A stretch of DNA of 62,641 bases, filler included, from Candidatus Desantisbacteria bacterium CG1_02_49_89 (GTDB lineage: Bacteria; Desantisbacteria; UBA1551), in NCBI GenBank assembly GCA_001871075.1. It is 5 parts of 5 records of this genome, joined end to end, with 100 filler letters (N's around TTAATTAATTAA, not from the genome) between each part and the next. Parts side by side here need not be neighbours in the genome. Positions count along the whole stretch, not along the records: positions 35,098 to 62,641 come from MNUP01000149.1; 4 more parts are not named here. One strand, written 5' to 3'. This document shows positions 5,690-51,227 of the stretch, in pieces. Numbering within the stretch: the first letter of the stretch is position 1; every line of letters starts with the position of its first letter. A program made the translations under genes and the position numbers. The notes under the pieces were generated by a model. That model searched no databases. It was given only the letters and a program-made list of their open reading frames with translations, and was not told where the DNA came from.

Positions 5690-5705
5690 ATATAATAGGC
5701 ATAAT

Positions 5706-5806
5706 AAGGGGGCAAACCCCGGGAAATCGGGGGACGCAAAACTTTACCCGTCAGGGGCACAGAATCTATGTTACGGAAGAGGCTAATAGTGAGCCAGTCA
5801 GGTGCA
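5706..5806 (+). ncRNA. c-di-GMP-I (GEMM-I)-like riboswitch
   Basis: GGCAAACC-CCGG-GAAA-TCGG-GGGACGCAAAAC matches the GEMM P2 tetraloop stem; GCCAGT near 3' end; lies between a promoter and a surface-protein gene. Confidence 0.7.
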
Positions 5807-39280: not shown

Positions 39281-39775
39281 ATGAAAATGAAAAATGGGGG
39301 AACGGGGTTCAGGGTGCCTCGCGAAGTGGTTGATATCCTGGGCTTAAAAGCCGATAAAAACGAGCCGGATAATATAACCGGGATAGGCGCGCGGGACCCG
39401 TTCAACAAGGGCGTGATTTGCAGCATTTACAAGTTCTGCGCGTATAATGAGATAATACTGCCGGTTTGCCCGGGCAGGCATCATTTTGAGTCAATCGACG
39501 CTTTCAACGAAACCAGGAGAAAGAAAGGGTTAAAGACAGTGGGATTTAAAAAGTGGCTGAGGTGCTTTATCCATCGCAAGAAAAAGCATAATGAATATAT
39601 CCTGGGCGCCAGGGCCATGGAGGAAAAGCCGGGCCGCTTCAGGATAGAAACGCTGAAGAAGATCGCAGCCTGGCTGCGAAGGACATACGGCGTAAAAGCC
39701 GGGGTTATGAAACCGGAAGTAGAGGGCGCGTTGCTGGATCTTCTTGAATGCCCTTTACCAGGATATTTTGAGTGA
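39281..39775 (+). CDS. Hypothetical basic protein
   Basis: AGGGG RBS; 12 nt after the previous gene. Confidence 0.65.
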   Translation: MKMKNGGTGFRVPREVVDILGLKADKNEPDNITGIGARDPFNKGVICSIYKFCAYNEIILPVCPGRHHFESIDAFNETRRKKGLKTVGFKKWLRCFIHRKKKHNEYILGARAMEEKPGRFRIETLKKIAAWLRRTYGVKAGVMKPEVEGALLDLLECPLPGYFE

Positions 39776-39790
39776 AGTCAAACGATAGCT

Positions 39791-40195
39791 TATTGCCCCT
39801 GCAGCTGCTCATGATCCCCCCTACTTTTTTTCGAAAGTGACAGGGGGGACCTACAAGCCAGAGTAGTATTTTGTCCCTGTAGCCCCTTCGGGGCTTAATA
39901 CAGGGATTTTCGAGTCAGAACGAGGCAAATGACTCTTCAATCGATGGCTCTTCGGCGCAGGGGCCTGCGCGCCAGAATCCTGCCAGCTCCAAAAGAGCTC
40001 AACGGCAGGACCTACGAATCAGAACGGAGCTGATGATTCTCCGGCTGGGTGAATGGTAACCTATTGCCCCTGCAGCTGCTCATGATCCCCCCTACTTTTT
40101 TTCGAAAGTGACAGGGGGGACCTACAAGCCAGAACTTAGACGATGGCTCTTCGGCGCAGGGGCCTACGCGCCAGAGCTAAGCGGATGGCGCTCCG
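39791..40195 (+). repeat. Tandem, recursively nested family B elements
   Basis: ~72-nt direct repeat (39791/40062) plus six CCTWCG-like linker/stem-GARC modules. Confidence 0.85.
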
Positions 40196-40206
40196 GGGAG
40201 TTAAAA

Positions 40207-40386
40207 ATGGAAGAGAAAGAAGAACTTAAGTGGTATACCGGATTTTTAGACCTGGTGATGTTTTTTATGATAGTGGTAATAGGCTTTTTCTCCAGTTTCA
40301 AGCACGTGTATAACCTTATATACGGGGAAGGCAGGAAAGAAGTTATAAGGGAAATGAACAAAAGGAAGGCCAATAATTCTGATTAA
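40207..40386 (+). CDS. Small single-TM protein
   Basis: GGGGAG RBS; hydrophobic FLDLVMFFMIVVIGFF. Confidence 0.55.
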   Translation: MEEKEELKWYTGFLDLVMFFMIVVIGFFSSFKHVYNLIYGEGRKEVIREMNKRKANNSD

Positions 40387-40552
40387 TCCGGCGCAGGATA
40401 TAAGGCGCAGGTTCTTTTTTGGAGCGGGAAGCTGCTGAATAAATTGTCCGCCCGTCTTTTCAGCGGGCGAGACCTCGCCCCGATAGGCAACCGGGACTGC
40501 GGGACAAAAGTCAAATTGCAAATTGTAAAATGAACTGCAGAGAGGAGAGAGA

Positions 40553-42612: not shown

Positions 42613-42682
42613 GCCCCCTGCGGGTTTCTGCGAAACCACAACGCTGGGGCCTACGAACCAGAGCTGGGCCGATGGTTCTCCG
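42613..42682 (+). repeat. Family B element
   Basis: CCCC..GGGG-CCTAC-GAACCA-GAGC-N6-GA-TGGTTC-TCCG then GCACGGATTT. Confidence 0.75.
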
Positions 42683-42866
42683 GCACGGATTTGCACGGAT
42701 GAATATCTTTTAGTTTTTAAACTAATGACTAATGACTGTTTGCAGCGGAATGGCGGTGAAGCGAGTATATATTATAGAGAGGAGCACGCCACTGAACCTA
42801 CTGTCCGCCCGTCTTTTCAGCGGGCGAGACCTTGCCCCGATGGGCATCGGGGCGCGGGAGGATATA

Positions 42867-50881: not shown

Positions 50882-50940
50882 CTACTTAAGTTTACATAGT
50901 TTACAGAGTTTATATAGTTTACAAAGTTATAAATCCGTGC

Positions 50941-51017
50941 CGTAGGGTCATCAGCTTGGTTCTGACCCGAAGGTCCCTGCGTTGAGCCCGCCACGAATAT
51001 TGGCGGGCTGCAGGGGG
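50941..51017 (-). repeat. Family B element inserted in a CACGGATTT repeat
   Basis: Flanks rebuild CAGCCACGGATTT/GCACGGAT, present uninterrupted at 44396-44416. Confidence 0.8.
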
Positions 51018-51227
51018 AAATCCGTGGCTGAGCTTTTTAAATCTCTCTCGAAGATCCCTGTAAAATATTTTTATGATTTCCTCGCCCATCCTTTCAGGTG
51101 GGCGAAGTCTCGCCCCGATGTCCATCGGGGCGGAGTGCTTTCGTGATACTTTCGTGCCTTCGTGGAAATCTTTAATCTGTGTAATCATCTTTCAGAAATC
51201 GGTGTAATCATTATTTAAGGAGATAGA

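Follow-up and report, generated by a model that had tools for sequence, protein, structure and literature searches.

Family B, a strongly covarying two-hairpin repeat of a Candidatus Desantisbacteria lineage, looks like an undescribed relative of bacterial small selfish palindromic repeats

We find that positions 39796–40196 of the window, a stretch of 62,641 nucleotides from Candidatus Desantisbacteria bacterium CG1_02_49_89 made up of five contigs joined by runs of N, hold six copies of a 66–78 nt element, here called family B, in two tandem composites with nesting up to three levels. Family B is a covarying two-hairpin structure, confined to a lineage, that has entered a gene, turns over between lineages, lies in hairpin loops and short tandem arrays in a common orientation with them, and swaps its hairpin modules. 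It looks like an undescribed relative of the bacterial small selfish palindromic repeats, and not like a proven RNA gene. As an explanation we propose, with a probability of about one half, that family B is selfish DNA, a repeat of its lineage that carries no gene and is non-autonomous, and that it would act as folded single-stranded DNA and be mobilised in trans, the best candidates for the mover being RAYT-type Y1 (HUH) transposases.

Architecture and covariation of the family B repeat

The repeat unit is one fixed frame, CCCTG-Y-[slot 1]-YAAY-R-CAGGG-R-CCTNC-G-[slot 2]-C-TNCGG. Slot 1 is filled by one of at least nine different small hairpins. Slot 2 usually holds NNNCA-GARC-N6-RA-TGNNN, whose stems fall into seven main types; in fewer copies it holds the hairpin CCCGCCAATAWTCGTGGCGGG, which can also fill slot 1, either way round, and lies next to GIY-YIG genes. 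The sequence-only reading had given the loop of the second hairpin as GARC-N6-GA; the 3′ GA is not fixed and may be GA, AA or TA. The module of the second hairpin (P2) is confined to family B (67 of 67), whereas hairpins like the first (P1) also head another repeat family.

Copies of this other family continue with GTCCTTTAGGGAC and have GATTA arms (C13:7310-7370, C7:8314, C17:4486, C38:15795, C106:7828, C107:15306 and C135:44151, where C denotes a contig of the genome). One of them lies about 100 nt upstream of a RAYT-like gene on C13.

A covariance model, R1, was built from 23 aligned simple copies, with 18 pairs from RNAalifold, and covariation was scored on 85 R1 matches (78 distinct) from this genome and its metagenome relatives. 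Of 1341 cells, 98.4% are paired, and double changes occur in 17 of the 18 pairs (219 cells). None of 500 shuffles reached any of the measures and slid controls were 24–53% paired, which bears out the strong covariation originally claimed for the stems. Even the 2 bp closing helix covaries, with CC/GG changed to TC/GA in eight copies, and single copies fold as DNA with z-scores of −1.9 to −5.2. The two-hairpin, strongly covarying structure is thus real and very well supported.

Mutual information in the family alignment picks out the helix pairs, plus two pairs that extend P1, and nothing that links the N6 loop to other parts. Since only helix columns covary, a pseudoknot between this loop and other parts was rejected. 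A K-turn, box C/D or hammerhead reading of CAGA..GAUGA was likewise set aside, as the 3′ GA is variable, there is no bulge, and CUGAUGA is present in some copies only.

The earlier reading could not match the element to a known family, and the Rfam check agrees: there was no match in 39600–40400 even at E ≤ 10, and a gathering-level search of the window gave none for family B. The sole Rfam hit in the window is a c-di-GMP-I riboswitch aptamer at 5701–5778 (+), with 38.6 bits against a gathering score of 35.

Nested copies in two tandem composites

The family B locus lies on the last contig of the window, C14 (position 35098 = C14:1), and its features are collected in Table 1. A self-nested element had been read from the sequence at 39791..40195, and the two composites are as that reading described them. 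The copy said to sit inside another at 40066 is the complete inner copy of composite 2, 40087–40154 (R1, 50.1 bits), which is also the uninterrupted twin of the inner copy of composite 1. Further copies had been placed in both GARC loops of the duplicate, and we locate them at 39874–39940 and 39978–40044. The first of these, the level-3 core, has P2 GAGTCA/TGACTC and the tail TTCAA, scores 68.6 bits with R1 (C14:4777-4843) and folds as DNA with z = −4.86; the second scores 58.8 bits (C14:4881-4947), with z = −4.42. Composite 2 gives R1 matches at C14:4990-5057 and C14:5058-5099, and as a whole it folds in the nested form at −28 kcal/mol (z = −2.91). The outer copy of composite 1 has no proper 3′ stem strand. 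All the stem pairs named in the earlier reading were recovered, in the composites and in two simple copies elsewhere on the contig.

Table 1. Family B copies and neighbouring features in the window, with positions counted along its full length
Feature	Position	Strand	Remarks
Composite 1	39796–40052	+	Duplicate of composite 2 at 95–97% identity, plus two further copies (repeat table)
Composite 1, outer copy, P1 5′ strand (CCCCTGCAGCTGCT) and linker CATGAT ahead of inner copy	39796–39815	+	Equals 40067–40086 at 95% (repeat D1)
Composite 1, inner copy (level 2): P1 CCCCCCT..AGGGGGG, ACCTAC, P2 AAGCCA/TGGCTC, tail TTCGG	39816–39955	+	P2 loop broken at 39864–39940
Level-3 copy inside the P2 loop of the inner copy, after AAGCCA-GAG	39864–39940	+	5′ extension TAGTATTTTG; core 39874–39940
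Composite 1, outer copy resumed: P1 3′ strand CGCAGGGG, CCTGC, P2 5′ strand GCGCCA, loop start GAA	39956–39977	+	Repeat D2, 97% to 40141–40175
Copy within the P2 loop of the outer copy, after GCGCCA-GAA	39978–40044	+	Subfamily CCYGCCAGCTCC.., P2 GAATCA/TGATTC
Remainder of outer loop (CTGGGTGA) and degenerate 3′ stem strand	40045–40061	+	Also where the 271 nt tandem duplicate begins (D1 from 40052)
Composite 2	40067–40196	+	Outer copy 40067–40080 and 40155–40196 (P2 GCGCCA/TGGCGC); inner copy 40087–40154 inside its first hairpin
Small ORF, ATG at 40207, 59 aa, no Pfam match	40197–40386	+	GGAG directly after the TCCGG tail of composite 2; context only
Simple copy, P2 GAACCA/TGGTTC, then CACGGATTTGCACGGAT arm units	42615–42683	+	R1 77.4 bits
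Simple copy 50940–51016, P1 slot = hairpin CCCGCCAATATTCGTGGCGGG, P2 GGGTCA/TGACCC	50931–51027	−	R1 79 bits; DNA fold z = −5.18

Contigs from four independent sequencing runs cover 39791–40024, 40021–40091 and 40062–40470 without differences, so the nested arrangement is not a mis-assembly. No joint that skips a nested copy was seen in these four DNA runs, but their Logan contigs break at the repeats and are uninformative on excision. No RNA run was listed as carrying the locus.

The region also borders on other repeats. At 40440–40490 lies a different and far more abundant hairpin repeat (TCCGCCCGTCTTTTCAGCGGGCGAGACCTCGCCCC), at which the summed contig depth rises about 50-fold in all four runs; variants of it carry family B copies in their loop (C30:12270 and C91:7535). 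The copy at 50940–51016 is bordered by identical 9 nt units, CACGGATTT, at 51026–51018 and 50939–50931. TGTAAAC-type heptamer arrays (CTTTGTAAACTATATAAACTCTGTAAACTATGTAAAC) follow the CACGGATTT arms at 50885–50930 (−) and in many other family B flanks, and different short arrays abut one another in intergenic DNA.

Copy number and lineage distribution

The genome (2.48 Mb in 150 contigs, 93.5% complete) contains 29 occurrences of the core pattern, against none for a backwards control, and 114 R1 matches at E ≤ 0.01, or about one per 22 kb. The 107 copies with E ≤ 1e-4 were analysed, leaving out the seven weakest.

R1 found no match in 40 other genomes, one of which (87% completeness) is of the same order; the presence of a single same-order genome among these 40 fits an isolated lineage. 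The strict pattern had no hits across one genome per species for 185,579 species, and family B had none in viral contigs. A looser pattern gave two single hits in the same collection, in a Gemmatimonadota MAG and in Actinomyces denticolens, and both were dismissed, as R1 matched neither at E ≤ 1e-6.

Metagenome contigs carry at least 128 family B loci. Among the 80 examined, 43 match the genome end to end at ≥99.5% identity with the repeat in place, and thus no ongoing movement is seen. The flanks of others are 72–96% identical to the genome, or alike at the protein level only (34–69%). Two loci, L082 and L088, have no similarity to the genome by blastn or blastx and a third, L089, has one 37% protein match, yet all three carry good copies (56–60 bits) with new stem pairs, for example GGGCCA/TGGCCC. 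The presence of copies in such strongly diverged lineages indicates that the family belongs to a clade of groundwater and sediment organisms and not to one strain. Family B is restricted to this lineage.

Location and orientation of copies

Locations were counted by eye, and by a crude script with its rows corrected by eye. In ten cases a copy comes after CAGAR(C) within another copy's P2 loop, the subfamily CCYGCCAGCTCC.. being found in P2 loops only (7 of 7 after CAGAR), and three copies lie in slot 1 of another. At least 11 sit within the loops of other hairpins, the flanks being inverted (..CCCCGA|B|TCGGGG..), and five further copies (C45, C55, C146, C103 and C83) are inside GTCATTGCGA..GAAGCAATC-type hairpins. 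About 26 copies have an identical 7–10 nt array unit on either side (CACGGATTT, CACGAAAG, GGTTAAAAG, AATCGTT or TAGCTCA), and another 16 or so have related CAC-type arms.

Co-orientation is strict. Adjacent or nested copies point the same way in 11 of 12 pairs, and of 30 CAC-type arrays adjoining a copy, 29 share its strand. Because the array regular expression was too loose genome-wide (864 hits against 837 in the control), the strand count uses the arrays adjoining family B alone.

The flank profile contains no conserved word (−1 is A in 26 of 45 T-class copies, and +1 to +3 is CAC in about 40%), no general target duplication was found (at the best offset in at most 10 of 103 copies, against about four by random pairing), and, as CCCTG.. 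at one end and ..TNCGG at the other are not mutually inverted, terminal inverted repeats are lacking.

How the copies replace their hosts bears on a serious if unlikely rival, in which family B spreads without an enzyme, hairpins and arrays with common stems or units exchanging copies through template switching or gene conversion (stalled-fork copy-choice, or microhomology-mediated), and would be a side effect of a genome unusually prone to hairpins and slippage. Rather than splitting the host hairpin cleanly, several insertions take the place of its loop or its 3′ half, which fits recombination at least as well as transposition. The host stems on the two sides of an insert may be discordant, as at C119:19243 (GAGTCA against TGGCTC) and in composite 1 (GCGCCA against the degenerate strand), and junctions fall at common short words, such as GATG at C135:22660/22593. 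The identical arm units on either side, with neither target duplication nor conserved target, and the lack of any gene linked to family B speak for the same view. Against it, the frame and the loop words CAGARC and RATG are kept in L082, L088 and L089, where the flanks have no nucleotide similarity, and this conservation points to some factor that recognises them; an enzyme would also more easily account for strict co-orientation, and for how a copy entered a gene without flanking homology.

CCGCC-loop-GGCGG hairpins with several loop types occur in 186 places of the genome; the CCCGCCCAGCAAGATTGGCGGGC hairpin, for example, is present in both orientations (12 and 8 copies), some copies having GTGTC or GTATC flanking words.

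Insertion into a gene and turnover between lineages

One copy, C100:7198-7264, lies antisense within a SLFN/AlbA_2-HATPase_c_4-wHTH gene (C100:6825-8477 (−), locus L180, 458 aa). Its protein has exactly 25 extra residues (75 nt, in frame) between an invariant VSE and RRNE, and this insert is missing from all nine aligned homologues (chosen among 120 listed matches of 55–65% identity). Pfam sees the HATPase_c_4 domain of this protein as two stretches. The TTCGG tail of the copy falls on the conserved Ser-Glu codons of the host, another junction at a short common word of the kind that enzyme-free spread would produce. The frame of the gene is open, and the identical protein is on record from five contigs.

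Orthologous loci differ in their family B content. In six of eight diverged locus pairs the repeat is present in the metagenome lineage only (L050/C36, L086/C142, L125/C69, L111/C127, L073/C2 and L115/C48, of which L073/C2 may be a rearrangement), and in one (L057/C84) it is common to both. At the eighth, L090/C29, the frame is unchanged while both slots hold different hairpins, which again is readily accommodated by recombination without an enzyme. No pair is a clean empty and filled site at the nucleotide level, as diverged orthologous intergenic regions differ wholesale, flanking arrays included. A length polymorphism between L120 and C71 was rejected as such a pair: it is an unrelated 92 nt tandem duplication in a coding region (C71:17058-17129), missing from L120, an otherwise 99–100% identical metagenome contig.

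The sequence-only reading took the element to be mobile and to target itself. Arrival by insertion is upheld by the 75 nt gene insert and the differences at orthologous sites, and self-nesting in GAR loops by the copies found there; specific self-targeting is not, since unrelated hairpins and tandem arrays also serve as hosts. Taken together, the findings are better explained by mobile or mosaic DNA than by an RNA gene.

DNA or RNA

Covariation as strong as that of family B would also be expected if it were a structured RNA (a small RNA, a ribozyme, or an mRNA element that acts in cis, for instance as a stabiliser) whose gene has multiplied and whose fold is selected as RNA. We regard this as improbable. 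Intergenic copies make up 101 of the 107. Where the flanking genes are co-directional, 45 copies are sense and 27 antisense to both neighbours, a mild sense bias that an RNA would account for, but those 27, together with nine between divergent genes and the antisense copy within the C100 gene, fit it poorly; ten more lie between convergent pairs. Orientation agrees with local GC skew in only 59 of 95 cases (p = 0.02), where skew and gene strand are themselves correlated (rho 0.81). In favour of RNA, composite 2 ends 11 nt short of an ATG, and its tail is immediately followed by GGAG; against it, no protein family is enriched among the neighbours of copies in the genome.

The wobble pairs are similarly divided. 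Non-Watson-Crick cells are rare (29 G.T and 15 A.C), and as the copies are related, the counts do not represent independent events. In P1, G.T exceeds A.C by 25 to 8 on the given strand, as an RNA fold would have it, whereas in P2 the A.C pairs (6–7) outnumber the G.T pairs (2–3). With regard to a self-cleaving ribozyme or riboswitch, there is no Rfam ribozyme match, no covarying tertiary pair and no association with a gene family. Nor does the unpaired sequence conserve a core beyond short junctions, and the modules are swapped freely. The weak sense bias, the lack of a linked gene family, the few wobbles in P2 and the antisense intragenic copy make us lean to DNA; we read the fold as one selected on a single strand, most simply DNA.

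Candidate enzymes

With no terminal inverted repeats, target duplication, conserved target or adjacent transposase, the mover of family B is one that we infer. The genome has ten Y1_Tnp matches. Of three Y1 proteins of about 230 aa that were scanned, one passes the NCBIfam cut-off for REP-associated tyrosine transposases and two fall just under it. RAYTs, as outlined in PMC8266576, recognise one strand of a folded REP, need the tetranucleotide at its foot, and cut nearby at CT or CA; P1 of family B has CT-G(T/C)AG-hairpin-CT, with the tetranucleotide base-paired.

The sequence-only reading had expected a nuclease or transposase to co-occur with the element; none adjoins any copy, and the 2 kb on either side of the copies contain neither Y1 nor GIY-YIG genes. 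The nine Y1 genes (of ten) whose flanks were read have other repeats there, or inverted repeats or head-to-tail hairpin arrays, none of which is family B, and the IS200-like gene on C83 has end hairpins that differ from it. As the genome is 93.5% complete in 150 contigs, a RAYT gene flanked by family B could have been missed.

RAYT-like proteins are encoded on C13, C100, C38, C114, C23 (two), C111 and C80. Those genes at C23:1740-4500 and C111:7300-8300, of the Y1 type, stand between head-to-tail arrays of their own tagged hairpins (GTAACTCAAACCTTCAGGTTTGA on C23; GGAAGCCTCAACTTGTTGAGGGAGATCT and CCCCAACAAGTTGGGGCG on C111).

The second group of candidates, and to our mind a very improbable one, consists of the small GIY-YIG nucleases of the genome, which might move or maintain family B in the manner of Ssn enzymes, by cutting hairpins that are then repaired by copying a filled site. 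There are eight GIY-YIG matches, seven of them with small open frames (82–114 aa). Several of the genes lie in split tRNA genes, and the one on C55 is beside a GTCATTGCGA..GAAGCAATC hairpin that resembles the NTS architecture outlined for Ssn nucleases in PMC11893778, that is, the type of hairpin whose loops hold the five copies noted above. The CCCGCC..GGCGGG hairpin of the family B slots is also found beside the GIY-YIG genes on C55 and C74. Set against this, none of these genes is flanked by family B, when gene-flanking repeats are given as the Ssn signature in the same account (PMC11893778); family B contains no NTS/SRM sequence; and the proteins match a group I intron endonuclease model only, and weakly.

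Small GIY-YIG genes were located at C74:10880-11120, C122:2995-3273, C81:19810-20040 and C55:13408-13695, and those on C74, C122 and C81 are inside or beside tRNA genes with the front or the end duplicated.

Comparison with described repeat systems

No description of family B was found among the papers listed on Desantisbacteria, as judged by title or abstract, or in a broad search on nested hairpin repeats. The small dispersed repeats SDR1–8 reported by Elhai et al. in 2008 are said to be 21–27 nt elements of Nostocaceae that are nested and lie within STRR heptamer arrays, with no identified transposase. On that description they are the most similar to family B in behaviour, being very small, mobile-looking, self-nesting and placed in short tandem arrays; they reportedly differ in being cyanobacterial and 21–27 nt long, where family B has three times this length and a two-slot frame and comes from another phylum.

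There is also a resemblance to REP, REPIN and BIME repeats with their RAYT enzymes. As characterised in the parts of the literature consulted (PMC8266576, PMC3733652, PMC3116915), these are short hairpin repeats, abundant and for the most part intergenic, whose stems show compensatory changes; they are believed to work as ssDNA folded on one strand and form mosaic composites. RAYT-type genes are present in this genome. The foot of the slot 1 hairpin has the REP-like word G(T/C)AG, then CT. REPs differ in being 20–40 nt palindromes, where family B is 66–78 nt with two hairpins in a fixed frame. More specific assignments within this group were rejected. In a GTAG-tagged REP the tag is unpaired, whereas G(C/T)AG of family B is paired throughout, with column 7 being C in 40 copies and T in 32. 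A REPtron does not apply, as no RAYT gene is flanked by family B and the RAYT-like genes are flanked by other repeats. Nor are the copies the inverted doublets of REPINs and BIMEs, being head-to-tail or nested on the same strand in 11 of 12 adjacent pairs. A MITE was ruled out on the lack of terminal inverted repeats and target-site duplication, no longer element with the ends of family B having been seen.

Two groups of insertion sequences share other traits. PATEs derived from IS200/IS605, on the IS608 paradigm, also have no terminal inverted repeats and no target duplication, carry hairpins near both ends and are strand-specific, as outlined in PMC8266576; IS608-type elements differ in inserting 3′ of a fixed tetra- or pentanucleotide and in having spacers between hairpin and cleavage site (PMC8266576), whereas in family B the flanks are not conserved and the hairpins extend right to the ends. 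IS1397 and ISPpu9 aim their insertion at palindromic repeats, but by the accounts cited (PMC1525189, PMC12288879) they are full insertion sequences with transposase genes, and here the invader is a 70 nt hairpin element. The Ssn nucleases with their NTS/SRM repeats offer a further parallel, with hundreds of oriented hairpin repeats per genome that are recognised as ssDNA (PMC11893778, as summarised there). This genome, too, has small GIY-YIG genes and SRM-like hairpins, and some family B copies lie in hairpins of this kind. Family B differs in sequence, in its two-hairpin frame and in not flanking GIY-YIG genes; its assignment as an Ssn-related motif was therefore rejected, the NTS word of PMC11893778 being absent and no GIY-YIG gene having family B in its flanks.

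Discussion

Our preferred reading, at the probability given at the outset, is that of a selfish DNA repeat moved in trans. The element would act as a folded single DNA strand and would be copied into single-stranded or slippage-prone sites, namely hairpin loops (among them its own P1 slot and P2 loop) and the points at which units of 7–10 nt tandem arrays meet. It would always land in one orientation relative to the host hairpin or array, and recombination among copies would then shuffle the hairpin modules. The mover would act in trans, and the candidates we favour for it are RAYT-type Y1 (HUH) single-strand transposases, with ten Y1 genes in the genome. Trans-mobilisation by a Y1 enzyme is our leading idea and enzyme-free copy-choice or gene conversion its serious rival, both of which we rank above an RNA function.

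A wider and rather doubtful extension is that there exists an undescribed hairpin-into-loop mobility system, of which family B would be the most legible member. In such a system a trans-acting ssDNA enzyme would cut folded modules and paste them into loops and 7–10 nt arrays in one orientation, hairpins would serve as slotted scaffolds, much of the intergenic DNA of this candidate phylum would have been built recursively, and the arrays would be either landing pads or footprints.

Few parts of bacterial genomes are as poorly understood as small palindromic repeats, whose movement is known in outline for REPs only. Family B has traits that are useful in this respect: a fixed frame with two exchangeable hairpin slots, preferred landing places in hairpin loops and array junctions, and strict co-orientation. 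It offers a defined substrate for testing ssDNA transposases and nucleases from a candidate phylum with no cultured member. Its intragenic copy demonstrates that small repeats can enter a conserved protein domain in frame. Strong covariation alone is no proof of an RNA gene, and family B is a practical warning to this effect for screens of structured RNAs.
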